NCBI GenBank assembly: GCA_000621185.1
Contig: KK211223.1
Span: 1-64,000, forward strand
Direction of reading: 5' to 3'
DNA: 64,000 nucleotides
Origin: Franconibacter pulveris DSM 19144
GTDB taxonomy: Bacteria > Pseudomonadota > Gammaproteobacteria > Enterobacterales > Enterobacteriaceae
Notes under the pieces: generated by a model
What the model saw: the letters and a program-made list of their open reading frames with translations, nothing else
Databases searched by the model: none
What the model was told of the DNA's origin: nothing
Part shown: in pieces, positions 11,601-64,000 of the stretch
Layout of the letters: every line of letters begins with the position of its first letter
How positions within the stretch are numbered: position 1 is the first letter of the stretch
Position numbers and translations under genes: made by a program

Positions 11601-12371
11601 GAGGCGCAGCGCCTGTTTAAAGACGCCAACGATATGCTCGACATGCTGAGCGCGAAGAAATCGTTGAACCCGCGCGGCGTGGTGGGGCTCTTTCCGGCTA
11701 ACCGCGTGCTGGACGACGTTGAAATCTACCGCGACGAAACGCGCACCCATGTGCTGGCGGTCAGCCATCATCTGCGCCAGCAGACAGAAAAAGTGGGCTT
11801 CGCCAACTACTGCCTCGCTGATTTCGTCGCGCCTAAACGCAGCGGCAAAGCGGACTACATCGGCGCTTTCGCCGTGACCGGCGGGCTTGAGGAAGACGCG
11901 CTGGCCGAAGCCTATGACGTGCAGCATGACGATTACAACAAAATCATGGTGAAAGCGGTGGCGGACCGCCTGGCGGAAGCGTTCGCCGAATACCTGCACG
12001 AGCGCGTGCGTAAAGTCTACTGGGGCTATGCGCCGAATGAGAACCTCAGCAACGAGGAGCTTATCCGCGAAAACTACCAGGGCATCCGTCCGGCGCCCGG
12101 CTATCCGGCCTGCCCGGATCACACCGAAAAAGCGACTATCTGGGCGCTACTGGATGTGGAAACCCACATCGGCATGAAGCTGACCGAGTCCTACGCCATG
12201 TGGCCGGGGGCGTCGGTTTCCGGCTGGTACTTCAGCCACCCGGACAGCAAGTACTTCGCCGTCGCGCAAATCCAGCGCGATCAGGTGGAAGATTACGCCC
12301 AGCGTAAAGGAATGAGCGCCACGGAAGTGGAACGTTGGCTTGCGCCTAACCTCGGGTACGATGCGGATTAA
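8688..12371 (+). CDS. metH: Cobalamin-dependent methionine synthase
   Basis: ~1227 aa, >90% identical to E. coli MetH along its whole length. The most likely start is GTG 8688 (MSSKVEKL, GGGAG RBS 7 nt upstream); the tool start at 8682 is an alternative. Confidence 0.95.
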
Positions 12372-47819: not shown

Positions 47820-48308
47820 ATGCAGCGTCCTGATTTTATTCGTCACTGGCGGGAAGTGGAGAGTGAGGATGACTCACGTTATCCCGATAGCGAGGAGCTT
47901 TTTTCCATTGGCGCGCCGCTTGCGCGCAAGATGGGGCTGACCCGACTGGGCATTCATCATGAGCGACTGCCGCCGGGCAGACGTACCTCTTACCCACACG
48001 CCGAGAGCGACGAAGAGGAGTTTGTTTATGTGCTGGAAGGCCACCCGGATGTCTGGATAAACGGTGAGCTCTGGGCGCTTGAACCTGGCGACAGCGTAGG
48101 GTTTCCTGCCGGGACGGGCATCTGTCACACTTTTATAAATAACACATCAAGCGAAGTCCGTTTATTGGTGTTAGGTGAGGCGAATAAACCTAAAAACCTT
48201 ATTTATTACCCACTTAATGCTAATTATGCCGCTACACGGCAGGACAGATGGATAGATCATCCGCCGCAGTTCTTTGGCCCGCATAACGGGTTGCCTACAA
48301 GAAAGTGA
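47820..48308 (+). CDS. Cupin-domain protein (162 aa)
   Basis: AAGGAGG RBS. Cupin motifs (..HHERLPPG..HAESDEEEFVYVLEG..) and a second His-containing motif (..GTGICHTFINN..). Not present at this position in E. coli K-12. Confidence 0.7.
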   Translation: MQRPDFIRHWREVESEDDSRYPDSEELFSIGAPLARKMGLTRLGIHHERLPPGRRTSYPHAESDEEEFVYVLEGHPDVWINGELWALEPGDSVGFPAGTGICHTFINNTSSEVRLLVLGEANKPKNLIYYPLNANYAATRQDRWIDHPPQFFGPHNGLPTRK

Positions 48309-48481
48309 AAGACTCATCTATAAATATTGTGTAGTAATTGAATGAGATAAAACCATGGATGGGAATGATTGTTTATGAGCAAATATATGCTCTTTATTAC
48401 CTCTTATTCACAGCAATAAACCATCCCCCGATATGTGATAACGGGCGGGGAAATTATCATCAAAGAAAAGACGGGTTAACT

Positions 48482-49786
48482 GTGAAAAAAATAATCAGAC
48501 TTTCAGTGGCAGCCATGGCAGTAACGGTGGCGACTCAGGCGAGCGCGGCCAACACCTGGGCGGAAGCGCGCAATGATGCGATGGGCGGAACGGGCGTCGC
48601 GACAGCTAATTATGGCAGCGCGGCGTTCATCAACCCGGCGTTACTCGCCAAAGCGCAACCGGAAGATGATGTAACGGTGATTCTGCCTTCCGTAAGCGCG
48701 CAAATTACCGATAAAGATAATCTTCAGGATGAAATCGATAGAATTAACGATCGTGTTGATTATTATGACGATGTGGTTGATAACCTGACCTTACAGCAGG
48801 TACTGCTTAACCCTGTTGGCACCCTTAATCAGTTCCAGGGGGCGGCGAGCGAGCTTGCCGATGAGCTGGACTATCTGCGTGGTAAAACCGCCAGCGCCAA
48901 CGCGGCGGCGGGCATTTCTGTCGCCATTCCTAATGACGTGCTTTCTGTCGCTTTTATCGCTAAAGGCTATGCTCACGCGCGTGTCAGCACCTCTATTGAT
49001 CAGCAAGATCTTACCTACCTGCGCAGCATTCAGAACAGCGATTCGGTGGCCTTGTTTGAAGCAGGAAAAGCGGCTTTGCTCGGCTCTGACGAAATTACCC
49101 GCAACCTGAACTCTGTCGCGTTCGGTCGTGCGGCGATTGTTTCTGATTACGGCATTGCACTGGCGCGTCAGTTTGATTTTGGCGGCGTGCCCGTGTCGTT
49201 TGGCGTAACGCCGAAGATCCAGAAAACCTGGCTCTATAACTACACCGCCTCTATTTATGACTATGACAGCGATGACCTGAGGAGCAGCCGCTACCGTACA
49301 GATAATACAGGCTTTAACGTTGATGCCGGTGTCGCAGCGGATCTGGGGCAGAACTGGACGGTGGGTCTGACAGGGCAAAACCTTGTTTCTCGCGATCTCG
49401 ATACAAAAAGCATAGAAGTACGTAACGGCCGCACGGGCGAGGTTGTGAACTATAAGGACACCTATCAAATCCGGCCGTTAGTGACCGCAGGCGTGGCGTG
49501 GCACAACGACCTGGTAACCGTAACGGCGGATGGCGATCTGACCGAAACCAAAGGCTTCAAGAGTGAAGGTAACTCGCAGTTTGTGGGCGTAGGCACGGAA
49601 GTGCGTCCGCTTGACTGGCTGGCGGTGCGCGCAGGTTTCCGCGCGGATGTGAAAGATAATGAGAGCAACGTCTTTACTGCGGGCGTCGGCTTTGCGCCGT
49701 TTAATCGTGTTCACCTTGACCTTACCGGCCTGGTGGGCGAGGACGACACCTGGGGCGCAGGCGCGCAGTTGAGCCTGACGTTCTGA
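48482..49786 (+). CDS. FadL/TraF-like outer-membrane beta-barrel protein (434 aa)
   Basis: GTG start. Signal peptide [22 protein letters not shown]. FadL-like N-terminal motif (..[22 protein letters not shown]..). Alternating amphipathic strands and a C-terminal ..SLTF. Confidence 0.6.
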
Positions 49787-49877: not shown

Positions 49878-50876
49878 ATGTCGCCAGAAACCAAACATTC
49901 TCTTCTTCCCCCGCACCGTTTTTCCATCGCGCCGATGCTCGACTGGACGGACCGCCATTGCCGCTATTTTCTGCGTTTGCTGTCGCGCAATACGCTGCTC
50001 TATACCGAAATGGTCACTACCGGAGCCATCATTCACGGTAAAGGGGATTACCTGGCTTACAGCGAAGAAGAGCATCCGCTGGCATTGCAGCTTGGCGGCA
50101 GCGATCCGCAGGCGCTGGCCCACTGCGCAAAGCTTGCACAAGCGCGGGGCTATGACGAAATCAACCTGAACGTCGGTTGCCCTTCCGACCGCGTGCAGAA
50201 TGGCCGCTTCGGCGCCTGTCTGATGGGCGAGGCGCAACTCGTGGCGGATTGCGTTAAAGCGATGCGCGATGTGGTTTCCATTCCGGTGACGGTAAAAACC
50301 CGCATCGGCATTGACGACCAGGACAGCTATGAATTCCTGTGCAATTTTATCGGCACCGTGGCGGAAAAGGGCGGTTGTGAGATGTTTATCATCCATGCCC
50401 GTAAAGCGTGGCTGTCCGGCTTAAGCCCGAAAGAGAACCGTGAGATCCCGCCGCTGGATTACCCGCGCGTCTATCAGTTGAAGCGTGACTTTCCGCAACT
50501 GACGATGGCCATTAACGGCGGCATTAAATCGCTTGAGGAAGCCAAAGCGCACCTCGAACACGTGGATGGCGTGATGGTGGGACGCGAGGCGTATCAAAAT
50601 CCAGGCATCCTCGCCTGCGTCGATCGTGAAATTTTCGGTGCGCAAGCTGCGGATGCCGACCCGGTTGCGGTAGTGCGCGCCATGTATCCTTATATTGAGC
50701 GCGAACTCAGCAACGGCACTTATCTCGGCCACATTACCCGTCATATGCTTGGCCTGTTCCAGGGGATTCCCGGCGCGCGTCAATGGCGCCGTTATCTGAG
50801 CGAGAACGCCCACAAAGCGGGCGCAGACATTGCCGTGCTGGAACACGCGCTGCAGCTGGTAGCCAATAAGCGCTAA
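49878..50876 (+). CDS. dusA: tRNA-dihydrouridine(20/20a) synthase DusA
   Basis: 332 aa beginning ..[38 protein letters not shown].., matching E. coli DusA. Confidence 0.9.
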
Positions 50877-50959
50877 AAGTTAACTAAAACCTGGCGAATT
50901 TGACCACGCCCTGCTGATAAAAAGCGGGGCGTTTTCTTTAAAAACAGCTGCTTATTTAT

Positions 50960-50975
50960 TGGCATGATTCTTGTA
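50960..50975 (+). promoter_or_regulatory. Sigma54 promoter of pspG (TGGCATGATTCTTGTA)
   Basis: -24 GG and -12 GT/TTGT spacing as in the E. coli pspA/pspG promoters. Confidence 0.45.
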
Positions 50976-51011
50976 ATAACTCTTCCAGAATTACCTGATT
51001 GGGAGAGAGCC

Positions 51012-51254
51012 ATGTTTGAACTGCTTTTTGTGGTCGCCTTTTTTCTTATGCTGCTGGCGACAGGCGTATCGTTGTTGGGCATCATTGCGGCTATTTTCGT
51101 CGCCACGCTGGTGATGTTTGTCGGCGGGTTATTTGCGCTGATGATTAAACTGCTGCCCTGGCTGTTGCTTGCCGTTGCGGCGGTGTGGGCTATCCGCGCG
51201 ATTAAAGCGCCGAAGCTGCCGCGTTATTCGCGCGCTAATCGTTGGCGTTGTTAA
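51012..51254 (+). CDS. pspG: Phage-shock protein G
   Basis: MFELLFVVAFFLMLLATGVSLLGIIAAIFVATLVMFVGGLFALMIKLLPWLLLAVAAVWAIRAIKAPKLP.. (80 aa), close to E. coli PspG. The tool ORF starts upstream inside the promoter. Confidence 0.8.
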   Translation: MFELLFVVAFFLMLLATGVSLLGIIAAIFVATLVMFVGGLFALMIKLLPWLLLAVAAVWAIRAIKAPKLPRYSRANRWRC

Positions 51255-51389
51255 GAGTTGCGGAGGCGATCACAACCTTGCAACTTTTCCGGCGTCAGAA
51301 GATAAGCCGCCATATTATTTGCTTATTAAATCTGTCACTATGAAAACGTTGTGACACGAATTCATCGCAGCTGTACCCTACATACAGCG

Positions 51390-51426
51390 CAAATAAAAAA
51401 GAAAGGGCTTCCTGCGGGAAGCCCTA
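51390..51426 (-). terminator. qor terminator
   Basis: AGGGCTTCC-TGC-GGGAAGCCCT hairpin with a minus-strand T-run. Confidence 0.55.
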
Positions 51427-51433
51427 ATTATTT

Positions 51434-52417
51434 CTACGGAATCAACAGGCTGGAGCCCTGCGTGGTGCGGCTTTCCAGCGTCTGGTGGGCGCGCGCCGCC
51501 TCGGCGAGCGGGAACCGTTGCTGCTCCGTCACGTCTACCTTGATAACGCCGCTGGCGATAAGTGAAAAAAGCTCATTGCTCGCCTCGTCCATCTCTTCAC
51601 GGTTTGTCAGGTAGCCGTTAAGGGAAGGGCGGGTGACATAAAGCGAGCCTTTCTGGTTAAGGATGCCGAGATTCACGCCGGTTACCGGGCCGGAGGCGTT
51701 GCCAAAACTCACCATCAACCCGCGGCGCTGCAGGCAGTCCAGGGACGATTCCCAGGTATCTTTGCCTACGGAATCATAAACCACGCGTACCTTTTTCCCG
51801 CCGGTCAGCTCCCGAATGCGCTCCGGGACGTTCTCTTCACGGTAGTTAATCATCTGCCAGGCGCCCGCCTGTTTAGCGCGCTGCATTTTCTCCGCCGACC
51901 CGGCGGTGCCAATGAGCTTCGCGCCCAGCGCTTTGGCCCACTGGCAGGCAATCAGCCCTACGCCGCCCGCTGCCGCGTGGAACAAAAACATTTCGTCTGG
52001 TTTGATTTCGTAAGTTTTACGCAGCAGATAAAAAACGGTCAGCCCTTTCAAAAACGATGCCGCGGCCTGCTCGTAGGAGATGGCGTTCGGCAATACCGCA
52101 ACTTTGTCCGCCGGGACATTATGCACCTCGCTGTAGGCGCCGAGCGCCGACTGGGCATAAACCACCCGGTCGCCTTCTTTGATATGCTTAACCGCGCTTC
52201 CTGTTTTGCTCACCACGCCCGCCGCTTCGGTGCCGAGGCCGCTTGGCATTGACGGCGGCGGATAGAGGCCGCTGCGGATATACGTATCGATATAGTTAAT
52301 GCCGATGGCTTTGTTTTCCACCTGCACTTCATTTTCCGCCGGGTCGCCAGGGGTAAACTCCACCGCTTTTAGCACGTCAGGCCCGCCGTGCTGGCTAAAC
52401 TCAATACGCGTCGCCAT
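51434..52417 (-). CDS. qor: NADPH:quinone oxidoreductase
   Basis: 327 aa beginning MATRIEFSQHGGPDVLKAVEFTPGDPAENEVQVENKAIGINYIDTYIRSGLYPPP.. Confidence 0.9.
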   Translation of the reverse strand: MATRIEFSQHGGPDVLKAVEFTPGDPAENEVQVENKAIGINYIDTYIRSGLYPPPSMPSGLGTEAAGVVSKTGSAVKHIKEGDRVVYAQSALGAYSEVHNVPADKVAVLPNAISYEQAAASFLKGLTVFYLLRKTYEIKPDEMFLFHAAAGGVGLIACQWAKALGAKLIGTAGSAEKMQRAKQAGAWQMINYREENVPERIRELTGGKKVRVVYDSVGKDTWESSLDCLQRRGLMVSFGNASGPVTGVNLGILNQKGSLYVTRPSLNGYLTNREEMDEASNELFSLIASGVIKVDVTEQQRFPLAEAARAHQTLESRTTQGSSLLIP

Positions 52418-52547
52418 AGTAACTCCTTGTTTTATTCAGGGGGGAGGAGGAGTATCGTTCGCGAATGCAATTGAGCACTGCGCGACGCAAATCAGCTTGG
52501 TATACTCCCCTTCTCTCAGATGATGACTTTTGGTAACTCCATTCACT

Positions 52548-53954
52548 ATGGCAGGAAATAAACCCTTCAACAAACCCACTGAAGCCCGCGACCCGCAGGT
52601 TGACGGCCTGAAAATGCCGCCGCATTCCATCGAAGCGGAACAGTCGGTGTTGGGCGGTTTAATGCTGGACAACGAACGTTGGGACGATGTGGCCGAGCGC
52701 GTTGTGGCAGAGGATTTTTATACCCGCCAGCACCGCATCATTTTCACCGAAATGCACCGTCTGCAGGAGACGGGGAAACCCATCGACCTGATTACCCTTT
52801 CGGAATCGCTGGAACTGCAGGGGCAGCTTGAGAATGTGGGCGGCTTCGCCTACCTGGCGGAGCTTTCGAAAAATACGCCAAGCGCCGCGAACATTAGCGC
52901 TTATGCGGATATCGTGCGTGAACGCGCCGTCGTGCGCGATATGATAACGGTCGCGAATGAAATTGCCGACGCGGGTTACGACCCCCAAGGGCGCAGCAGT
53001 GAAGACCTGCTCGACCTGGCGGAATCCCGCGTTTTCCAGATTGCCGAAAACCGCGCCAATAAAGACGAAGGGCCCAAGAGCATCGATCAGATCCTCGAAG
53101 CCACCGTCGCGCGCATTGAAACGCTCTATCAACAGCCGCATGACGGCGTCACGGGCGTGGATACCGGCTATCAGGATCTCAACAAGAAAACTGCCGGCCT
53201 GCAGCGTTCAGACCTTATTATCGTGGCGGCGCGTCCCTCCATGGGGAAAACCACATTCGCCATGAACTTGTGCGAAAACGCCGCCATGTTGCAGGATAAG
53301 CCGGTGCTGATTTTCTCGCTGGAGATGCCCTCTGAGCAGATCATGATGCGTATGCTGGCGTCGCTGTCGCGCGTGGACCAAACCCGTATTCGTACCGGCC
53401 AACTGGACGATGAAGACTGGGCGCGCATTTCCGGCACCATGGGCATTCTGCTTGAGAAGCGCAATATGTATATTGACGACTCCTCGGGCCTGACGCCTAC
53501 CGAAGTCCGCTCGCGCGCGCGACGCATTTATCGCGAACACGGCGGCATCGGCCTGATTATGGTGGACTACCTGCAGCTGATGCGCGTGCCTTCGCTCTCC
53601 GATAACCGTACGCTGGAAATCGCCGAAATCTCCCGCTCGCTCAAAGCGCTGGCGAAAGAGTTGCAGGTGCCGGTGGTGGCGCTTTCGCAGCTTAACCGCT
53701 CGCTGGAGCAGCGCGCGGACAAGCGTCCGGTAAACTCGGACCTGCGTGAGTCAGGCTCTATCGAGCAGGACGCCGACCTGATTATGTTCATTTACCGTGA
53801 TGAGGTTTATCACGAGAACAGCGACCTGAAAGGCATTGCGGAAATCATTATCGGTAAACAGCGTAACGGCCCTATCGGTACGGTACGCCTGACCTTTAAT
53901 GGCCAGTGGTCGCGCTTTGATAACTATGCGGGTCCGCAATACGACGACGAATGA
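52548..53954 (+). CDS. dnaB: Replicative DNA helicase DnaB
   Basis: MAGNKPFNKPTEARDPQVDGLKMPPHSIEAEQSVLGGLMLDNERWD.. (468 aa), >90% identical to E. coli DnaB. Confidence 0.95.
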   Translation: MAGNKPFNKPTEARDPQVDGLKMPPHSIEAEQSVLGGLMLDNERWDDVAERVVAEDFYTRQHRIIFTEMHRLQETGKPIDLITLSESLELQGQLENVGGFAYLAELSKNTPSAANISAYADIVRERAVVRDMITVANEIADAGYDPQGRSSEDLLDLAESRVFQIAENRANKDEGPKSIDQILEATVARIETLYQQPHDGVTGVDTGYQDLNKKTAGLQRSDLIIVAARPSMGKTTFAMNLCENAAMLQDKPVLIFSLEMPSEQIMMRMLASLSRVDQTRIRTGQLDDEDWARISGTMGILLEKRNMYIDDSSGLTPTEVRSRARRIYREHGGIGLIMVDYLQLMRVPSLSDNRTLEIAEISRSLKALAKELQVPVVALSQLNRSLEQRADKRPVNSDLRESGSIEQDADLIMFIYRDEVYHENSDLKGIAEIIIGKQRNGPIGTVRLTFNGQWSRFDNYAGPQYDDE

Positions 53955-54109
53955 ATAATTTGGCTATCTTGCTTGCGATTTTGGGCTTGGGCAGTGCTCG
54001 CCATCCTCACGTACTGCAGTACGCTCCGGTGGCTGCGCGCTGGCCGCACCCAAACTCGCTGCGCCGATAACGCCAAATTGCCGGGTTGACTGAAAATAAA
54101 GGAATAAAC

Positions 54110-55189
54110 ATGCAAGCGGCAACTGTGGTAGTAAACCGCCGCGCTCTGCGTCACAACCTGCAACGCCTGCGTGAACTGGCTCCGTCCAGCCGTCTGGTGG
54201 CGGTGGTGAAAGCAAACGCCTATGGGCACGGTCTGCTGGAGACCGCGCAATCGCTCCCCGACGCCGACGCTTTTGGCGTCGCCCGCCTCGAAGAGGCGCT
54301 TCGCCTGCGCGAAGGCGGCGTCACTCAACCCATTCTGCTGCTGGAAGGCTTCTTTAACGCGGCCGATTTGCCCATCCTTGCCGCGCAGCATTTCCATACC
54401 GCTATTCATATCCCCGAACAGCTCGCCGCGCTGGAGCAGGCCGATCTGCCTGAACCTGTTAATGTGTGGATGAAGCTAGATACCGGCATGCATCGCCTTG
54501 GGGTGCGTCCGGAAGAGGCTGACGCGTTTTATGCGCGCCTGGCGGCTTGCCGAAACGTGCGCCAGCCGGTCAATGTCGTCAGCCATTTTGCCCGTGCGGA
54601 TGAGCCGGAGTGCGGCTTCACTGAACGCCAGCTCGATATTTTTACCCGCTTCACCGAAGGTAAGCCCGGGCTGCGATCCATCGCTGCTTCCGGCGGCGTT
54701 TTGCTGTGGCCGCAGTCCCATTTTGACTGGGTGAGGCCGGGAATTATTCTCTATGGCGTATCGCCGCTTGAAGGCGGTTCACGTGCGAGCGATTTTGGCT
54801 TCCAGCCGGTTATGTCGCTCACCTCCAGTCTCATTGCGGTGCGCGACCATAAAGCAGGCGAGCCGGTGGGCTACGGCGGCACCTGGGTAAGCCATCGCGA
54901 TACGCGTCTTGGCGTGATTGCGCTGGGTTATGGCGACGGCTACCCACGCAGCGCGCCTTCAGGCACGCCGGTGCGGGTGAACGGGCGTGAGGTGCCGATA
55001 GTCGGTCGCGTGGCGATGGATATGATCTGCGTCGATTTAGGCCCGGATGCGCAGGAAAAGGCAGGCGACAACGTAATCATGTGGGGCGACGATTTGCCCG
55101 TTGAGCGCATTGCGGCGATTACAAAAGTGAGTGCTTACGAACTTGTAACGCGCCTGACGTCGCGGGTAGCGATGCGTTATATCGACTAG
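54110..55189 (+). CDS. alr: Alanine racemase
   Basis: [41 protein letters not shown].. contains the PLP-lysine motif [10 protein letters not shown]. Confidence 0.9.
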
Positions 55190-55442
55190 CTACAGGGTGG
55201 TGGCGCTACGCTTCCATGCTATACAGTCGGGGGCTGAGCCGGCGTGTGATACGGCCAGACGGGGTTGCTTCCATAGGGCGGGTAAGCTACAGACTACCCG
55301 CCACGGGAGAAACGTCAGAACATCGTCAGGCCTGCCCAGGCCCCGGCTGGCCTGCGCCGTCGCGTCAATATCCTTCTCGATCTCCTGACTTATCCGGTTT
55401 ATTGTGGATGAACATCACACCGTAAATCAGGAGAACCCCAGC

Positions 55443-56636
55443 GTGTTTCAGAACGTTGACGCTTATGCCGGCGACCCCATCCTTTCGCTGATGGAGCGTT
55501 TCAAAGAAGATCCCCGTCAGGACAAAGTGAACCTCAGCATTGGCCTCTATTACAACGAAGAAGGGGTTATCCCGCAGCTACAGGCTGTAGCAGAAGCAGA
55601 AGCGCGGCTGAATGCGCAGCCACACGGCGCGTCGCTTTATCTGCCGATGGAAGGGTTGAATAGCTACCGCAACAGCATTGCGCCGCTGCTGTTTGGCGCA
55701 GACCATCCAGCACTGCGTGAAGGCCGTATCGCCACGATCCAGACCTTAGGCGGCTCCGGCGCGCTGAAAGTGGGCGCTGACTTCCTCAAGCGCTACTTCC
55801 CCGCTTCGCAAGTTTGGGTCAGCGACCCCACCTGGGAAAACCACGTCGCCATCTTTAACGGCGCTGGCTTCGAAGTGAATACTTACCCATGGTTTGATGA
55901 AGAGACCAAAGGCGTACGTTTTGAGGCGCTGCTGGAAACGCTGAATACGCTGCCTGCGCAAAGCATCGTGCTGCTGCATCCGTGCTGCCATAACCCCACC
56001 GGCTCCGACCTCACCAATGAACAGTGGGATGCGGTGACAGACATTCTGAAAGCCCGCGAGCTAATCCCGTTCCTCGACATCGCCTATCAGGGCTTCGGCG
56101 CGGGTATGGAAGACGATGCTTACGCCATTCGCGCTATCGCCAGCGCCGGGCTGCCGACGCTGGTCAGCAACTCATTCTCGAAAATTTTCTCTCTCTATGG
56201 CGAGCGCGTGGGGGGGCTTTCCGTCGTCTGCGAAGACCCCGATGCGGCAGGACGCGTCCTGGGCCAGCTAAAAGCGACAGTACGTCGCAACTACTCCAGC
56301 CCGCCGAATTTCGGCGCGCAGGTGGTGGCGACCGTGCTGGGCGATGCCGACCTTAAAGCCAGCTGGCTTGCTGAAGTGGAAACCATGCGCAGCCGTATTC
56401 TCACCATGCGTCAGACGCTGGTGGATGCGCTGAAACAAGCGATGCCGGGGCGAGATTTTGACTACCTGCTTAAGCAGCGCGGCATGTTTAGCTATACCGG
56501 CTTAAGCGCCGCTCAGGTAGACAGGTTGCGTGAGGAGTTTGGCGTGTATCTGATTGCCAGCGGTCGTATGTGCGTGGCAGGCCTGAACAGCCGCAACGTG
56601 CACCGAGTGGCGCAGGCGTTCGCTACCGTAATGTAA
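55443..56636 (+). CDS. tyrB: Aromatic-amino-acid aminotransferase TyrB
   Basis: GTG start giving [49 protein letters not shown].. (397 aa), as in E. coli TyrB. AGGAG RBS. Confidence 0.9.
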
Positions 56637-56655
56637 GGCGAAAGGCACAATAATG

Positions 56656-56688
56656 AAAAACACTACGTTATCGTAGTGTTTTTTTATA
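56656..56688 (+). terminator. tyrB terminator
   Basis: AAAAACACTACG-TTAT-CGTAGTGTTTTTTT. Confidence 0.65.
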
Positions 56689-57103
56689 CAAGCACCTTGA
56701 AAATTAATGAATTAGCGACCTGCTTTTGTAAGCAAATAATAATTAATCGGGTTGAAGAATTATATTTAAAATATAAATATATTTTACTTTATTGCTGTTC
56801 ATATTTACACAAAGTATTTTGCTGGCGATACACTTTTCCATAATTGTAATAATACGCTTTTATAATAACTTTTGTTTTTAAGGGATAAATAAATCAAATT
56901 TCCAGGGTGTCAGGCTAAAAATGGCTTTGCACGGTAAATCTTTATTACAAGTTCATGCTATGGCGCAGCAAACTTTAATCAGAAAATAACGGTTGCTTTT
57001 GTTTTATAGAGCAGGGATGGATGAGGTTCTCTCATCCGGGCTTACAGATAAAATGTCAAAATGATTATTTGCTTAAATTTTATAAATAATCAAAGGAAAC
57101 GTT

Positions 57104-59806
57104 ATGAAAAATAAAGGAATGCGTAGCGTGAATAAAAATAAACATGTTCTTCATGCAAATTTAGCGCCGGTTTGTTTTGCAACAATGCTGGCTCTGGGGA
57201 TGGTATTGCCTGTACAGGCTGCCGTAGTCGCGGATAACTCTGCCGCTAATCAACCTTCTGTGCATACTGGCGCGAATGGCGCGACCATCGTTGACATTAA
57301 TAAAGCCAGCGCGGAAGGCGTATCACACAACGTTTATTCGCAGTTCAACGTCGACCAGAACGGCGTCATTCTCAATAACAGCGGTGGTGCAACAAACACC
57401 CAACTGGCCGGACAGATTAACGGCAACGCCAACATGGCGGGCGGCAGCGCGAAGGTGATTCTGAACGAAGTCCGCTCTGCCGATCCCAGCCAGTTGAACG
57501 GTATGGTGGAAGTGGCGGGGCAGTCCGCTCAGGTTATTATCGCGAACCCGTCAGGGATAACCTGCAACGGGTGCGGTTTCATCAATACCAACCACGCTAC
57601 GCTGACTACTGGCACCGCCAGCATTGATGCCCAGGGTAAAGTGAATGGTCTGGATGTGAAAAAAGGCCAGATTGTCATTACCGGCAAAGGCATGGATACC
57701 TCTTCCACGCAGTACACCGATATCATTGCTCGTTCAGTTAAAGTGAATGCGCAGCTCAAAGCAAATGAACTGAACATCACTACAGGCAGCAACCATATCG
57801 ATAAGAATGGTCGCGTGAAAGCCATCGCTGCAACCGGCGATGCGCCGGAGCTGGCGCTGGATGTCTCTTCACTGGGCTCCATGTACGCCAACAAAATTTA
57901 TATGAAAGGTACGGAAGCGGGTGTAGGCGTACGCCTCGATCATGCTGACCTGACGGCGACGGATAGCCTGTCTATTGAGGCCAACGGCACTATCAATAAC
58001 AACGGCGGCCATTTATCGGCCAAAAACAGCGTCATGCTGAACAGCCAACAGGATGTACTGAACAGTAATAGCCAGATTACTGCGGACGGCGATGTCATGG
58101 TTTCGGCACAAGGTCGTGTTGATAACCACGGCGGCAAAATCAAAGGCGGCAACGTTAACGTTTATGGCGGCAAAACCGTAAACAACGCGGGCGGCTCTAT
58201 TCATGGCACCCAGGCTGTAGACATAATATCGAATGCCCTGAACAATACCGATGGCGATATCACGAGCGACGGTAATATTACTATCAACCGTGGCAGTTAC
58301 AACTACTATAACTCCTCTAAAACAGATGGCGTGGTTAACAAGAATGGTCATATTAACGCTAAAGGCAATATGACCATCGATTCCGCTAATGTTTATAACG
58401 AGGATGGTTCTATCAGTGCCAATAGCTCACTGAATATCAACACCGGTACGCTGAACAACAATAAAGGTGTAATTGCCTCTGGTAACGCTAATGATGCGAC
58501 CTGGACTCAAATTACCGCCAGCGAACTGAAAAATGATAACGGCAGCATCACGGCTACTGGCGAAAATAGCGAGCTGATGGTGATGGGCAACAATGCGCTG
58601 ACTAACCATGACGGCAGCATTGTTGGCGAAGGAAATGTCACCTTTAACGGCGTGGTCGACAACTCCGCAGGTAAGATTGCGGCAGGCAAAGACATGCATA
58701 TGTATGTGAATGGCTATGCCTCCGACGCAGACAGTTCATTAACGTCTGGCCAGAATATGGATTTGATGGTGAACGGTACATTCCAGAACGCAGGCGCTAT
58801 CAAGTCGGGTCAGGACCTGTTGATGTCTCTGGGTGGCGGCGGCTGGTACGGTAATTCAGGCTCTGCTTCAAACACTGGTATCATCGATGCAGCTGGTCGT
58901 TTGTCTGTTCAGTCGAATAGCAATGTATTCGATAATAGCGGCAGCATCTCTGCTGGCCAGATGGACTGGCAGATCCTTGATCTGTACAACCGTGGTTCTA
59001 TCGCCAGCCGTGGCGACATGAATTTCAACGCCAATAATATCAACAACTTTGCTCAGGGTAAGATTAGCGCAGGTAACGATATCAATGTTTACACTGCCGC
59101 GCTGATGAATGAAAAAGATGGCCAGATCGAGGCTGGACATTCTGCGTCGTTTAACCTGACCAATAACTTCGATAATTCTGGCGAAATCAAAGCCACTAAT
59201 GATGTTAATGTCACCTCGTTAAGTTATCGTCCGGCTAGCTATGCTAATAAAGGTAATATCCTGGGCGGTGATAACGTTAACATTAACTTCGCTGGCAGCC
59301 ATTTTGCTAACACCGGCACCATTAAAGGTGACAAAGCCGTTAATATTGACGCTAATTCTTTATATAACTCCGGCGAAATCAACAGCGCTGGCAACGTTAC
59401 CCTTGCAAGCGCTAACGATATTACCAACGACGTTAACGGTAAAATTACCGGCGACAAAGTGATTACTCGTGGCCGCGTTAATAATATGGGTGAGATTACC
59501 CAGACCGGTGAGGAATCTGACAGCGCTGATAATGGCAACACCACGCCGGATAATGGTAATGTTACGCCAGATAACGGTAATAACACCCCGGATAACGGAA
59601 ATAACACCCCAGATAACGGCGATTCAATCGCAGACAATACTCAGCATGCTGATGGTTTCGATGGTAACGGCGGCGTCTGGATCAATGGCGTTAACTATGC
59701 CAGCGGTAAAGAAGTAAACGGCGTGTATATCCGTAGCGTACAAACCTACCCGGATGGTTCATTCATCATCTCTGCGGGTGCAGGTAGTTTCTACGGTAAG
59801 TTTTAA
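57104..59806 (+). CDS. Two-partner-secretion exoprotein TpsA (FHA/ShlA-like, 900 aa)
   Basis: Signal peptide followed by a TPS domain (..ATIVDINKASAEGVSHNVYSQFNVDQNGVILNNSGG..AKVILNEVRSADPSQLNGMVEVAGQSAQVIIANPSGITCNGCGFINTNHATLTTG..), then an Asn/Gly-rich beta-helix, four TPDNGN repeats and a ~60-aa C-terminal module. Preceded by 400 bp of AT-rich DNA. Confidence 0.85.
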   Translation: MKNKGMRSVNKNKHVLHANLAPVCFATMLALGMVLPVQAAVVADNSAANQPSVHTGANGATIVDINKASAEGVSHNVYSQFNVDQNGVILNNSGGATNTQLAGQINGNANMAGGSAKVILNEVRSADPSQLNGMVEVAGQSAQVIIANPSGITCNGCGFINTNHATLTTGTASIDAQGKVNGLDVKKGQIVITGKGMDTSSTQYTDIIARSVKVNAQLKANELNITTGSNHIDKNGRVKAIAATGDAPELALDVSSLGSMYANKIYMKGTEAGVGVRLDHADLTATDSLSIEANGTINNNGGHLSAKNSVMLNSQQDVLNSNSQITADGDVMVSAQGRVDNHGGKIKGGNVNVYGGKTVNNAGGSIHGTQAVDIISNALNNTDGDITSDGNITINRGSYNYYNSSKTDGVVNKNGHINAKGNMTIDSANVYNEDGSISANSSLNINTGTLNNNKGVIASGNANDATWTQITASELKNDNGSITATGENSELMVMGNNALTNHDGSIVGEGNVTFNGVVDNSAGKIAAGKDMHMYVNGYASDADSSLTSGQNMDLMVNGTFQNAGAIKSGQDLLMSLGGGGWYGNSGSASNTGIIDAAGRLSVQSNSNVFDNSGSISAGQMDWQILDLYNRGSIASRGDMNFNANNINNFAQGKISAGNDINVYTAALMNEKDGQIEAGHSASFNLTNNFDNSGEIKATNDVNVTSLSYRPASYANKGNILGGDNVNINFAGSHFANTGTIKGDKAVNIDANSLYNSGEINSAGNVTLASANDITNDVNGKITGDKVITRGRVNNMGEITQTGEESDSADNGNTTPDNGNVTPDNGNNTPDNGNNTPDNGDSIADNTQHADGFDGNGGVWINGVNYASGKEVNGVYIRSVQTYPDGSFIISAGAGSFYGKF

Positions 59807-59831
59807 TAATTAGTGAGTAGTACGATAAACA

Positions 59832-59868
59832 TAACGCTCTATTTTATATAGAGCGTTATTTTCTATTA
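59832..59868 (+). terminator. Intergenic hairpin between tpsA and tpsB (putative attenuator or partial terminator)
   Basis: ATAACGCTCTA-TTTTA-TATAGAGCGTTAT perfect 11-bp stem followed by TTTCTATT. Confidence 0.4.
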
Positions 59869-59935
59869 ATGGGTTTTATAGTTGTAATGGCCATTTCTGT
59901 CGGCATAGATGAAAGTAGAGTGAAAAGGATTTTAC

Positions 59936-61618
59936 ATGGTAGTTAATAAAATTAGCGCTTACGGAGCTATTCTTTCTGCGCTGTTCGGTATTCACTCTCC
60001 TGCTTATGCTGAAGTCATGGCGAATCAACAGGCGCTAAGCCAGCAGCAGCAAGATGAAGCCAGACGAAATCAACTGATTCCCGAAGCTAAATCGCTCCTC
60101 TCATCTGATGCTGAACGTATCAGTGATGAAATGGCCATGCCGCAGGAAAAGCCCTGCTACAATATTGCGCATATCGTTTTAGAAAACAGAGAAGCGTTTC
60201 CTCACTGGATGGTCTTTCGTGATCTAACCCGTCAGGCTGAAGGCAAGTGCATCGGCGTGAATGGCATTAAGTCGCTCTATAAAGCAATACAAAACCGTTT
60301 CATTTCTCATGGTTATATTACAACGCGCGTGCTGGTGCCGGACCAGGATTTAAGTAAAGGGACACTTACGCTGCGTGTGCTGCCCGGAAAAATCAGCGAC
60401 ATTATTTTTAAAGGCGATTCGGGGAAATACATCCATTCAATCAATAATTTTCCGGAACGAAAGGGAGACCTGCTCGATCTTCGCGGTCTGGAACAAGGCA
60501 TTGAAAATTTACAACGCGTCCCGGGTTCTACGGCTGAAATAAATCTTGTTCCGGGGGCTAAGCCTGGTGAAACCCAGGTAGAAGTCAGCCGCAAACAACT
60601 TAAATCCTGGCGGCTTGGCGCCTGGGCTGATGATTCAGGGAGTAAATATACCGGGCGTTATCAGAGCGGCCTGGCGTTCTACCTGGACAACCCAACCTCC
60701 CTGAATGACACCTTTTATGCGGCCTATGGCGGCGGGGTAAAAAACGAAGACGGACGCCGCAGCGATAACGTTTCTGCTTTCTATTCTGTCCCATGGGGAT
60801 ACTGGCTGATGGAGTTTTACGGCAGTAAATACCGTTATACTCAAACTATTCATAGCGGTGATTTTAGTTATCTTTACAGCGGCATTGAAAAATTAGCTAC
60901 CGCCCAGTTAAGTCGGGTTATTTATCGCAGCGCCAGTCAAAAAACGACCTTCAAATTAAAAGCAATTAAACGTGACTCCACCTATAACCTCAATGATGTG
61001 GAAGTCGAAGTGCAGCGCCGCGATACCAGTAGCTGGAAACTCAACCTTGAGCATCTTGCTTATTTTGCTTTTGGACAACTTAAAGCCAGCCTCGGCTATC
61101 AGCGAGCGGCGCACTGGTTCGGCGAAAAACCGGATGCCGAAGAAGTGGTAGGCAGCGCGGATTCGCAGGCGCGTATTATTACTCTGGGCGTGGACGGCTC
61201 CTTCCCGTTCCGCCTGGGCAAACTGTCGATGAGTTATGAGCCGCATTTTATGTCGCAAACCTCTCCGGACAAATTAACGCAGCCTGATAAATTCACTATC
61301 GGCAACCGTTGGACAGTACGTGGATTTGATGGTGAAACGACGATCTATGCCGATAAAGGCTGGTATCTGCGTAACGATCTTAACCTGAACCTGCCGCAAT
61401 GGGGCATGCAACCCTACATTGGGGTGGATTATGGCGAAGTTCGCGGTTCCAAAAATGATTACTGGAGCGGCAAACATATTGCCGGGGCGGCGGCAGGCAT
61501 CCGGGGCGTAAAAGGCAAATTCGGCTACGACCTTTTTGTTGGCGCGCCCTTACTCAAACCCGCAGAGATGCACACCAGCCCCGTGACGGTTGGTTTTGCC
61601 GTACAGTGGCAGTATTAG
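59936..61618 (+). CDS. TpsB outer-membrane transporter (ShlB/FhaC/HecB family, 560 aa)
   Basis: Signal peptide, POTRA-like N-terminal region, and a C-terminal beta-barrel ending ..VGFAVQWQY. Confidence 0.85.
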   Translation: MVVNKISAYGAILSALFGIHSPAYAEVMANQQALSQQQQDEARRNQLIPEAKSLLSSDAERISDEMAMPQEKPCYNIAHIVLENREAFPHWMVFRDLTRQAEGKCIGVNGIKSLYKAIQNRFISHGYITTRVLVPDQDLSKGTLTLRVLPGKISDIIFKGDSGKYIHSINNFPERKGDLLDLRGLEQGIENLQRVPGSTAEINLVPGAKPGETQVEVSRKQLKSWRLGAWADDSGSKYTGRYQSGLAFYLDNPTSLNDTFYAAYGGGVKNEDGRRSDNVSAFYSVPWGYWLMEFYGSKYRYTQTIHSGDFSYLYSGIEKLATAQLSRVIYRSASQKTTFKLKAIKRDSTYNLNDVEVEVQRRDTSSWKLNLEHLAYFAFGQLKASLGYQRAAHWFGEKPDAEEVVGSADSQARIITLGVDGSFPFRLGKLSMSYEPHFMSQTSPDKLTQPDKFTIGNRWTVRGFDGETTIYADKGWYLRNDLNLNLPQWGMQPYIGVDYGEVRGSKNDYWSGKHIAGAAAGIRGVKGKFGYDLFVGAPLLKPAEMHTSPVTVGFAVQWQY

Positions 61619-61766
61619 CCGCTATCTGCAAAGGCATGAAAACGGGCTTCGGCCCGTTCCGGTAATGGAATGGCCGCTTTTTTTCCCTAAAACAACTTCC
61701 TGATTTTACCTTTCGCCCATCAGGCTACACACTTAACAGGATTGATTTCTGTTTAGGGAGTAGCTT

Positions 61767-62183
61767 ATGTGGTGCCAACAGACTGTGACGCTGAACGCGA
61801 AGCCGAGAGGGTTTCATCTGGTAACGGAGGAGATCCTCCGTCAGATAGAAGGGCTTTCCCGCATCAACGTTGGGTTACTGCATCTGCTGCTTCAGCACAC
61901 TTCCGCCTCCCTGACGCTGAATGAAAACTGCGATCCTTCTGTCCGCCGGGATATGGAACGTTACTTTTTGCAGGCTGTGCCGGATAACGCCCCGTACGAG
62001 CATGATTATGAAGGCCCGGATGATATGCCTTCGCATATCAAATCGTCGACGCTCGGCGTTTCTTTGCTGTTGCCAGTTCATCGCGGACGGGTGCAGTTGG
62101 GTACCTGGCAAGGGATTTGGCTGGGAGAACATCGCATTGACGGCGGTTCGCGCCGGATTGTCGCCACACTACAAGGGGAATAA
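61767..62183 (+). CDS. yjbQ: UPF0047/YjbQ-family protein
   Basis: 138 aa beginning [61 protein letters not shown].., ~80% identical to E. coli YjbQ. Confidence 0.85.
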
Positions 62184-62539
62184 TGATGACCAACTCGGAG
62201 CTGTTGCAATATTGTATGAGTAAACCCGGTGCTGAACAAAGCGTGCATAGCGACTGGAAGGCCACGCAAATAAAAGTTGCTGATGTGCTCTACGCTATGG
62301 TGCATGAGGTACAAGAACGTCCGGCCGTCTCGCTGAAAACCAGCCCGGAACTGGCCGAACTGCTGCGCCAGAAGCATGAAGATGTCTTTCCCAGCGCGCA
62401 TCTTAATAAAGCGCACTGGAGCACGGTTTACCTGGACGGTAATTTACCTGATTCGCAAATTTATTATCTGGTAGATGCTTCTTATCAGCAGGCGCTGGGG
62501 CTGCTGCCAGAGCAAACCAGACAGCAGCTTTCGGTATAA
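62183..62539 (+). CDS. yjbR: MmcQ/YjbR-family protein
   Basis: 118 aa. Start overlaps the yjbQ stop (TGATGA), as in E. coli yjbQR. Confidence 0.8.
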   Translation: MMTNSELLQYCMSKPGAEQSVHSDWKATQIKVADVLYAMVHEVQERPAVSLKTSPELAELLRQKHEDVFPSAHLNKAHWSTVYLDGNLPDSQIYYLVDASYQQALGLLPEQTRQQLSV

Positions 62540-62546
62540 CGTCATC

Positions 62547-62570
62547 TGCGCGGGGGACTGCCCCGCGCAT
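62547..62570 (+). terminator. yjbR terminator
   Basis: GCGCGGGG-GACT-GCCCCGCGC. Confidence 0.5.
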
Positions 62571-63053
62571 TGCTTTCGAACGATTTCCTCTGTGCCGCAA
62601 AAACAGCTATGCCATTATTAGACCTGAATCAGATAAAAATAATGCACCGTCTGAAAGTAACGCTGCGTTGAACTTAATTTGGAAGCTTACATACATACTT
62701 TAATGTATGCAGTATTGGGATAAGTTAGAAGATAAATCCTTTTTTATTATTAATAAAGACAGGTCGTCCTTTAATATACTTTTTTTCCCTGGGTTGCGTT
62801 TGTTTTACAAGAGATTGCCTTTATATGGCCCTATTATGATAGATAAAGATTATTATATTCGGTTCATATATTTTTATAATGTATTAATGGCCTGGTTTTT
62901 AAAAGTGGTTTGTTTTTACTTTTCTCCTTAAAAGATATAATTAATTCGGCAATTATGATGTGTGGGTTTTTATTATGTTTTATTTGGAATTAATAAATAG
63001 CATGAATTATTGCGTCATATTGCCGTGTGATTGACCAGAAAAAGGAAAAGGAA

Positions 63054-64000
63054 ATGAAAAACAGGAAAGATGTAAAAAGCGCATCTAAGCATACGCTACA
63101 TGCGAAACTGGGTCCGGTTTGTTTCGCTACGCTGTTAGCATTGGGAATGGTCGAAACGGCTAACGCGGCAATCACTGCTGATACCAGCGTGGCGAATCAG
63201 CCGGGCATTCATACTGGTGCAAATGGCGCAACGATTGTCGATATCAACAAAGCCAGCGAACAAGGCGTTTCGCACAATATTTATTCTGAATTTAACGTAG
63301 ACAAAAACGGTGTAGTACTGAACAACAGCACCGCCAATACCTCTACCCAATTGGCTGGCGCTATCAACGCTAACAGCAATCTGGCTGGCAACAGCGCTAC
63401 CATTATTCTTAACGAAGTGCGTTCTGCCGATCCAAGCCAATTAAACGGCATGGTTGAAGTTGCTGGTAAATCTGCGCAAGTCATTATTGCTAACCCATCT
63501 GGCATCACCTGCGACGGCTGCGGTTTTATTAATACTAACCATGCCACGCTGACTACGGGTACGCCTACGTTTGATGATAATGGCAAGCTGACCGGCGTAA
63601 AAGTTACCAAAGGTCAAATCGTTATTGATGGCGCGGGCATGGACGTGGGTAATGACGGTAAGGCAAAATATACTGACATTGTAGCCCGCTCCGTGAAACT
63701 GAACGCTGAACTGCAGGCCAAAAACCTCACTATCGTGACCGGCAGCAATAAGGTAAATGCTAAAGGCGAGGTAACGAAGCTCGACTCAGATAGCAATAAG
63801 CCGGAGCTGGCGCTGGATGTGTCCGCGCTGGGCTCAATGTACGCCGGTAAAATCAACATGATTGGCACGGAAGACGGCGTTGGCGTTCGTCTCGATCATG
63901 CCAATATGGTTGCCGATGACGACCTGAACATTACTCTGAACGGTCAGTTAGTCAATGATGGTGGCTTGATCGCAGCAGACAGAAAATTAACTATTAACGC
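63054..64000 (+). CDS. Second TpsA paralog (N-terminal 315 aa; continues beyond the window)
   Basis: MKNRKDVKSASKHTLHAKLGPVCFATLLALGMVETANA.. followed by a TPS domain ~75% identical to the first TpsA (..ATIVDINKASEQGVSHNIYSEFNVDKNGVVLNN..IILNEVRSADPSQLNGMVEVAGKSAQVIIANPSGITCDGCGFINTNHATLTTG..). No stop codon before position 64000. Confidence 0.8.
   Translation, partial: MKNRKDVKSASKHTLHAKLGPVCFATLLALGMVETANAAITADTSVANQPGIHTGANGATIVDINKASEQGVSHNIYSEFNVDKNGVVLNNSTANTSTQLAGAINANSNLAGNSATIILNEVRSADPSQLNGMVEVAGKSAQVIIANPSGITCDGCGFINTNHATLTTGTPTFDDNGKLTGVKVTKGQIVIDGAGMDVGNDGKAKYTDIVARSVKLNAELQAKNLTIVTGSNKVNAKGEVTKLDSDSNKPELALDVSALGSMYAGKINMIGTEDGVGVRLDHANMVADDDLNITLNGQLVNDGGLIAADRKLTIN

Follow-up and report, generated by a model that had tools for sequence, protein, structure and literature searches.

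Two-partner secretion (TPS, or type Vb secretion) is well understood, and one more TpsA/TpsB pair is routine. The question raised by the locus considered here, which lies on contig KK211223.1 of Franconibacter pulveris DSM 19144 (positions 1 to 64,000 were analysed, hereafter the window), is whether the tpsA and tpsB genes found between tyrB and yjbQ are a recently inserted cassette, as a first-pass annotation made from the sequence alone had proposed, or part of something older and larger. We find it reasonably probable that this is a chromosomal TPS locus in which one transporter (TpsB) goes with two paralogous passengers (TpsA1 and TpsA2), and that it is old at its site and variably retained rather than a recent insertion. 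The system reaches beyond the coordinates first given to it, with two passengers per transporter that are split by two housekeeping genes.

One transporter and two passengers

The gene order, established from the window and from relatives (uvrA lies beyond the window), is tyrB / leader 1-tpsA1-tpsB / yjbQ-yjbR / leader 2-tpsA2 / uvrA. The genes initially annotated as tpsA and as an ShlB/FhaC-type tpsB are both where they had been placed, with TPS, POTRA and ShlB domains matched in Pfam. The A-then-B order of that pair stands, but the system continues past ~61700, with tpsA2 at 63054, beyond yjbQR, which makes the order A1-B-(yjbQ-yjbR)-A2. The two genes between tpsB and tpsA2 are conserved housekeeping genes, outside the secretion system proper.

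The transporter carries the hallmarks of Omp85/TpsB proteins, that is, two POTRA domains (POTRA_2 at amino acids (aa) 76-151, E 3e-22, and POTRA_3 at aa 152-206, E 9e-14), a ShlB-type barrel (aa 211-524, E 1.7e-90) and the L6 VRG[F/Y] motif, here VRGF at aa 461, with GVDYG shortly after. Among structures in the PDB, it is much nearer CdiB (6wil, E 3e-59) than FhaC (E 2e-14).

TpsA1 is, as first described, a 900-aa protein with a clear TPS domain (PF05860 at aa 40-298, or 57221-57997, E 3.5e-48 and 165 bits for a cut-off of 33.5). It also matches TIGR01901 (NPXG, E 1.7e-21) and TIGR01731 (20-aa repeats of filamentous haemagglutinin, FHA) in NCBIfam, while Pfam finds the TPS domain alone on the full-length protein and Fil_haemagg repeats on the helix segment. 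In a PDB search, the TPS domain retrieves HpmA265 (E 4e-35) and FHA30 (E 1e-29). A putative signal peptide can be delineated by eye (~aa 1-39), with a basic N-terminus, a hydrophobic core (APVCFATMLALGMVLPVQA) and an A-x-A-like site before AVVAD, features that are kept in alignments A1 and A6; ESPR is not matched in Pfam.

TpsA1 is itself full-length, in a family whose proteins measure roughly 870-910 aa. There are ~24 full-length relatives of TpsA1 (804-945 aa), with the same stop and C-terminal module in the alignment, the closest being a Franconibacter daqui protein with 99% identity. Their shared architecture consists of a long signal peptide, a near-invariant TPS domain, fast-diverging repeats, a last rung, a low-complexity linker rich in D/N/G/T/P and the C-terminal module; DPSQLNG and ANPSGITCNGCGFIN are invariant throughout the family alignment. 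Between genera, the TPS domain is 77-86% identical and the helix 37-48%. In an AlphaFold2 (AF2) model, a beta-helix spans aa 270-800 with a predicted local distance difference test (pLDDT) >90 and ends in the last rung NMGEITQT (aa 794-801, 59483-59506), which is conserved in the family. It is followed by a linker (aa 805-847) that is disordered (pLDDT <50) and contains TPDNGN repeats, the copy number of which differs between strains (there is one more unit in the 99%-identical F. daqui protein P0001). The C-terminal module is a predicted five-strand SH3-like barrel, with a pLDDT of ~75 in the full model and 83 when modelled alone, which is seen only within the TpsA1 family and has no Pfam or PDB sequence match. 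The only Cys residues in TpsA1 are at aa 24, 154 and 157. A Foldseek search of the PDB with the full-length model gave EtpA (8vbb, E 0.017) as best match, which is not significant.

The second passenger is cut by the end of the window. Its first 315 aa are 65% identical to TpsA1, 96% to a 781-aa protein with a TPS domain (P0040) and 86% to a Cronobacter muytjensii protein, and in its own genome the gene encoding P0040 has uvrA directly 3'. Proteins of this type are ~724-781 aa long, with a Pro-rich tail that ends in SHH or YYRR. The TPS-coding parts of the two passenger genes (57230-57945 and 63177-63901) are direct repeats, 71-79% identical and ~5.95 kb apart, that flank tpsB-yjbQ-yjbR and between which recombination or gene conversion might take place.

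TpsA1 and TpsB represent an uncharacterised family belonging to a well-known class, and are a bona fide TpsA/TpsB system. Two features are of modest note: the split one-transporter/two-passenger layout, which is kept across genera, and the family-specific modular C-termini.

A probably old locus, variably retained

To compare loci, one genome per species was scanned with YjbQ, and the window proteins were searched against the 80 returned loci by tblastn. No near-identical locus of the window's own species was among those returned; of the species representatives, Franconibacter helveticus matched YjbQ best (93%). The full compound layout is also found in Atlantibacter sp. (L004, where TpsA1 is 57%, TpsB 82% and the N-terminus of TpsA2 72% identical), Cronobacter dublinensis (L086/87) and a second Franconibacter-like lineage (L092). 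Partial sets occur as well. In Cronobacter sakazakii, the order is tyrB, leader, tpsB, yjbQ, yjbR, tpsA2, two small ORFs (open reading frames) and uvrA, with no tpsA1, and the leader aligns in part with that of C. dublinensis tpsA1, which hints that tpsA1 might have been deleted in C. sakazakii. In Citrobacter amalonaticus, Enterobacter sp. and Rahnella selenatireducens, the tpsA1-tpsB pair is found alone, at unrelated chromosomal sites.

Universal conservation within the genus, which the first-pass annotation had named as a refuting finding, is not observed: in F. helveticus, the tyrB-yjbQ gap is 141 bp, yjbR abuts uvrA, and both insertion points are empty and without aphA. TPS genes are also absent, by tblastn, from Siccibacter and two Atlantibacter species. 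In most other Enterobacteriaceae, tyrB and yjbQ are ~1 kb apart, with aphA presumably filling the gap as in Escherichia coli, in which the interval reads tyrB, two small hypothetical genes, aphA, yjbQ, yjbR and uvrA. The locus does sit at the aphA position of E. coli, but since the nearest empty sites (F. helveticus and Siccibacter) also lack aphA, nothing shows that aphA was displaced.

The two small ORFs of C. sakazakii (114 aa and 148/180 aa, at 11349-12248 on the minus strand of L089) lie between tpsA2 and uvrA. They were considered as immunity or accessory genes and rejected, as Klebsiella and Superficieibacter have homologues in their yjbR-uvrA intervals, at loci devoid of TPS genes. In Franconibacter, uvrA directly follows tpsA2, without ORFs of this type.

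How long has the locus been in place? In comparison with the empty F. helveticus site, homology is lost right after the tyrB stop and comes back at ~61672. As first suggested, the locus would be a recent genomic island, a foreign tpsAB cassette that was put into the tyrB-yjbQ interval and is kept silent by H-NS. This explanation, which we regard as rather unlikely, has the composition of the DNA on its side: leader 1 has a GC content of 0.295, no stretch of the 64-kb window is richer in AT than the two leaders, and GC at third codon positions (GC3) is 0.54 in tpsA1 and 0.50 in tpsB, when most of the remaining long ORFs in the window, neighbours included, lie at 0.65-0.78, so that the atypical composition reported at first is confirmed. 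It can also call upon the variable presence of the locus (which F. helveticus, Siccibacter and two Atlantibacter species lack) and upon the tpsA1-tpsB pairs that Citrobacter, Enterobacter and Rahnella carry at unrelated sites. A recent arrival is, however, difficult to square with a compound layout that three genera share at one and the same site, down to a tpsA2 beyond yjbQR, or with a TpsB that diverges between genera (75-82% identity) as much as its flanks do (81-85% for Alr, 86-88% for TyrB, 75-87% for YjbQ, and 75-97% for flank genes overall). Nor are there any integrase, insertion sequence (IS) element, tRNA or flanking direct repeats in ORF, Pfam, repeat and Rfam scans of the stretch (which included no dedicated tRNA scan). 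A plasmid origin was rejected too, the best match in PLSDB being at most 35% identical.

Of the usual marks of an island, atypical composition and variable presence are therefore found here, and mobility genes and boundary repeats are not. Because TpsB divergence is like that of the flanks, the layout is the same in three genera, and mobility genes and boundary repeats are lacking, a recent insertion is disfavoured. Long residence with lineage-specific losses, or else en-bloc replacement through recombination in the tyrB/uvrA flanks, would fit better, and it is plausible that the locus was of foreign origin at some time.

One transporter for both passengers?

In the TPS pathway, TpsA proteins are exported by Sec, their unfolded TPS domain is recognised by the POTRA domains of TpsB, and after translocation through the TpsB barrel a beta-helix folds outside the cell (PMC5422565). 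The domain content of TpsA1, TpsA2 and TpsB appears to meet the sequence-level needs of this pathway. Each passenger would go through Sec with its long signal peptide, the two POTRA domains of TpsB would bind the unfolded TPS domain in the periplasm, and the passenger would then thread the TpsB barrel and fold outside the cell as a right-handed beta-helix. Some TpsBs are known to secrete more than one TpsA (PMC5422565). Here, orthologues of TpsB are accompanied by TpsA2 alone in C. sakazakii, by TpsA1 alone in Citrobacter, Enterobacter and Rahnella, and by both in the window, C. dublinensis and Atlantibacter, and from these three kinds of sets around an orthologous tpsB it follows that a single TpsB probably exports both TpsA1 and TpsA2.

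Several observations weigh against an old locus in which two paralogous passengers share one transporter. TpsA2 could be served by another TpsB encoded elsewhere, such as that of the Cronobacter plasmid FHA locus, and it has no C-terminal module of the TpsA1 type. A GC3 near 0.5 in three genera is unusual for long-resident genes, and the TpsA1 TPS domain has a low pLDDT in the full-length AF2 model.

What happens at the other end of the passenger is more conjectural. HMW1 and HxuA stay tethered to the cell via a small globular C-terminal domain in the periplasm (PMC5422565), and by analogy the linker and C-terminal module of TpsA1 may act as a periplasmic stopper that keeps the passenger at the cell, although without a disulfide. 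The module could instead be a distal tip.

In the wider family (relatives P0005-P0052), a last-rung motif, NxGxIT[EQP][TD], precedes at least three kinds of C-terminal tail. TpsA1 has the SH3-like module; the related TpsA2 class and a Citrobacter farmeri class, with the N-terminal part in common, have either Pro-rich tails (with SHH or YYRR as last residues) or a tail that finishes with KKKKNISF. This arrangement recalls a boundary motif before variable ends. A bolder proposal, to which we give little credence at this stage, is that these interchangeable tails (Cys-free SH3-like mini-barrel, Pro-rich or Lys-rich) make up an undescribed modular plug-or-release system for two passengers and one transporter, with the mini-barrel as a new disulfide-independent stopper and a T/S/P/N-rich linker that may be glycosylated in some lineages.

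Directly after tpsB in C. amalonaticus (L081, 10505-12214), there is a gene for a PglL-like O-oligosaccharyltransferase, with Wzy_C and Wzy_C_2 domains and PglL_A at 27.5 bits (cut-off 25). Together with the T/S/P/N-rich linkers of TpsA proteins, this suggests possible passenger glycosylation in that lineage.

What might TpsA1 do?

Most likely, TpsA1 would be a non-toxic surface adhesin or aggregation factor that exposes its fast-evolving helix. A protein of this kind that its C-terminus would keep at the cell is favoured because there is no toxin or pore-forming region, the helix evolves fast, and the protein ends in a disordered linker and a mini-domain. Other functions known for TpsA proteins have to be weighed against it. 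ShlA and HpmA are cytolysins that measure roughly 1,600 aa and form pores through their C-terminal half, and a secreted haemolysin of this type, activated by TpsB, might be suspected here given that HpmA265 is the best solved match for the TPS domain and that some relatives carry the source label 'hemolysin precursor'. Yet, the similarity is limited to the TPS domain, for which FHA30 scores nearly as well, TpsA1 consists of 900 aa of repeats, linker and 45-aa module, and the tpsA1-tpsB order is the reverse of shlBA, all of which makes a cytolysin quite improbable. Somewhat less probable still is nutrient capture by an HxuA-like protein held at the surface via its C-terminal anchor. HxuA is a short TpsA of ~900 aa, a size that TpsA1 shares, and the small globular C-terminal domain is a feature of both HxuA and HMW1 (PMC5422565), but ORF and Pfam scans of the window show neither a TonB-dependent receptor gene nor transport genes next to the locus, no similarity to HxuA emerged from the PDB search, and there is no Cys pair at the TpsA1 C-terminus.

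We consider it very improbable that the locus is a degenerate or miniature system for contact-dependent inhibition (CDI), in which TpsA1 would be a truncated CdiA or bear a tiny C-terminal toxin. A typical CdiA is far longer than 900 aa, and the first-pass annotation had already noted that TpsA1 is short and without a CDI toxin region; indeed, string and Pfam scans detect no VENN motif, PT-VENN domain or CdiA-CT toxin domain in it. TpsB is closest to solved CdiB structures and the wider family has interchangeable tails after NxGxIT[EQP][TD], which is what one would invoke for CDI, but no such tail has a toxin-like match, each being either of low complexity or a 45-aa beta-barrel. Likewise, tpsA1 is followed by no immunity ORF, tpsB starting 129 bp beyond its stop. 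An internal frameshift in a longer CdiA-like gene had been named as what would overturn the annotation, and is not what we see, considering that the ~24 relatives have kept both the stop position and the C-terminal module.

Leaders, flanks and other elements

The features of the locus are collected in Table 1. Upstream, it is flanked by dnaB, alr and tyrB (Pfam/NCBIfam), and the tyrB terminator hairpin forms the left edge of the sequence common to relatives.

Table 1. Coordinates of the tyrB-tpsA2 region in the window
Feature	Position	Strand	Description	Evidence or remark
tyrB	55404-56636		upstream flank	Pfam/NCBIfam
tyrB terminator	56656-56683		hairpin, 12-bp stem between A- and T-runs	identical in L092
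leader 1	56640-57103	+	tyrB-tpsA1 intergenic, 464 bp, GC 0.295	presumed promoter/regulatory region
tpsA1	57104-59806	+	900-aa passenger	ORF list, Pfam, NCBIfam, alignment, PDB search, AF2
tandem repeat	59528-59620	+	21-bp unit, 4.4 copies, encodes TPDNGN(N/V) linker	in-frame, four NxT sequons
C-terminal module	59651-59803 (aa ~850-900)	+	~45-50 aa (GVWxNGVxYxxG...YPxGY)	alignment, AF2
spacer hairpin	59831-59859	+	12-bp stem and T-rich tail, in 129-bp tpsA1-tpsB spacer	possible partial terminator/attenuator
tpsB	59936-61618	+	560-aa Omp85-family transporter	Pfam, PDB search, motifs
hairpin 3' of tpsB	61654-61673	+	terminator-like hairpin and T-run	
yjbQ	61767-62183	+	downstream flank	Pfam/NCBIfam
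yjbR	62183-62539	+	downstream flank	Pfam/NCBIfam
leader 2	62540-63053	+	upstream of tpsA2, 514 bp, GC 0.335	
yjbR terminator	62547-62569		start of leader 2	
tpsA2, 5' part	63054-64000	+	315 codons, cut at window end	starts MKNRKDVKSASKHTLHAKLGPVCFATLLALGM

The AT-rich leaders are likely to hold promoters and to make the genes conditionally expressed. A leader of ~400-480 bp also precedes tpsA1 at loci L004, L081, L084 and L086, with a poorly conserved sequence: leaders align poorly between genera, and within a genus they diverge faster than coding sequence. The 'curved-DNA-like' A/T tracts of the first-pass annotation survive in part, because tracts of at least 4 nt are in excess in leader 1 (18 versus 9.2 +/- 2.6 in shuffles), but they show no helical phasing (score -0.07), which leaves plain AT-richness and no support for curvature. 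Neither leader is enriched in the H-NS core motif. Unphased tracts and a motif that is not enriched also count against a recent, H-NS-silenced island. H-NS control of the locus would be plausible. The hairpin in the tpsA1-tpsB spacer may set the A:B expression ratio. Elsewhere in the window, the only stretch with a GC content near 0.40 is found at ~48101-48500.

Other candidate elements were rejected. A conserved leader RNA or riboswitch is contradicted by an Rfam scan of 50000-64000, which gave no match, and by leaders that can hardly be aligned between genera. Leader 1 contains a 16-nt inverted repeat (56729-56744 / 57060-57075, 94% complementary) whose arms are 315 nt apart, a geometry similar to that of fimS. 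An invertible promoter switch was nevertheless dismissed and the repeat ascribed to chance, as neither L092 (89% identical) nor any of the other leaders has kept it; no recombinase-like ORF or domain showed up in the ORF and Pfam scans of the stretch.

Why this locus could be useful

The occurrence of TpsA1 only, TpsA2 only, both or neither across Cronobacter, Franconibacter, Atlantibacter, Citrobacter and Enterobacter offers a comparative series for the study of TpsB substrate specificity. These passengers are short (~780-900 aa), their helix is modelled with confidence and their C-terminal module is tiny, which would make them convenient for studies of TpsA retention and release. There is also a medical side to it, Cronobacter being an infant pathogen: the Cronobacter virulence-gene literature that we found treats the plasmid FHA locus only, and the chromosomal TPS locus at tyrB-uvrA goes unmentioned in it.

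Comparison with known systems

Several TPS systems resemble this locus in part. The EtpA/EtpB system of enterotoxigenic E. coli secretes a beta-helical TpsA adhesin, which is the best, although weak, Foldseek match to TpsA1; EtpA is larger, and etpBAC has the B-then-A order and a glycosyltransferase. ShlA and HpmA are different in size (~1,600 aa) and in order (shlBA). CDI systems are close in that CdiB is the solved structure nearest to TpsB, the TPS domain bears the NPxGI...C-x-G-C-G-F-I-N signature, and variable tails follow a conserved motif, whereas the locus here has no VENN, toxin or immunity gene and tpsA1 precedes tpsB. The A-then-B order had originally been likened to that of hecA/hecB; A-then-B is right for tpsA1-tpsB, but the analogy is weak. 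Hec (HecB/HecA of Dickeya) has been described as a Cdi-type system (PMC8386352), and hmw1abc and bcpAIOB are better precedents (PMC5422565).

Haemophilus influenzae hmw1abc shares more with the locus than its order. HMW1 and HxuA have a small globular C-terminal domain, proposed to be periplasmic and to tether the passenger to TpsB (PMC5422565), and TpsA1 also has a small C-terminal module; the glycosylated repeats of HMW1 are Asn-rich NxT repeats, as are those of the TpsA1 linker. The likeness is one of analogy only, for there is no detectable similarity outside the TPS domain, the C-terminal anchor of HMW1/HxuA is disulfide-bonded while TpsA1 has no Cys pair there, and neither an HMW1C-type glycosyltransferase nor an HxuC receptor gene is part of the locus.

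As for FHA, the TpsA1 passenger is a beta-helix with 20-aa repeats of the FHA type. FhaB is several-fold longer than these passengers of 780-900 aa, in which no prodomain is evident. The sister genus Cronobacter has a plasmid-borne TPS locus of this kind (fhaB/fhaC on pESA3/pCTU1), the only TPS locus discussed in the Cronobacter literature that we found (PMC7019382, PMC7074816), whereas the one described here is chromosomal, at tyrB-uvrA. A parallel for the proposed sharing of a transporter comes from FhaB/FhaS/FhaC in Bordetella and from meningococcal TPS, in which one TpsB serves several TpsAs with similar TPS domains (PMC5422565), the difference being that tpsA2 is separated from tpsB here by two housekeeping genes.

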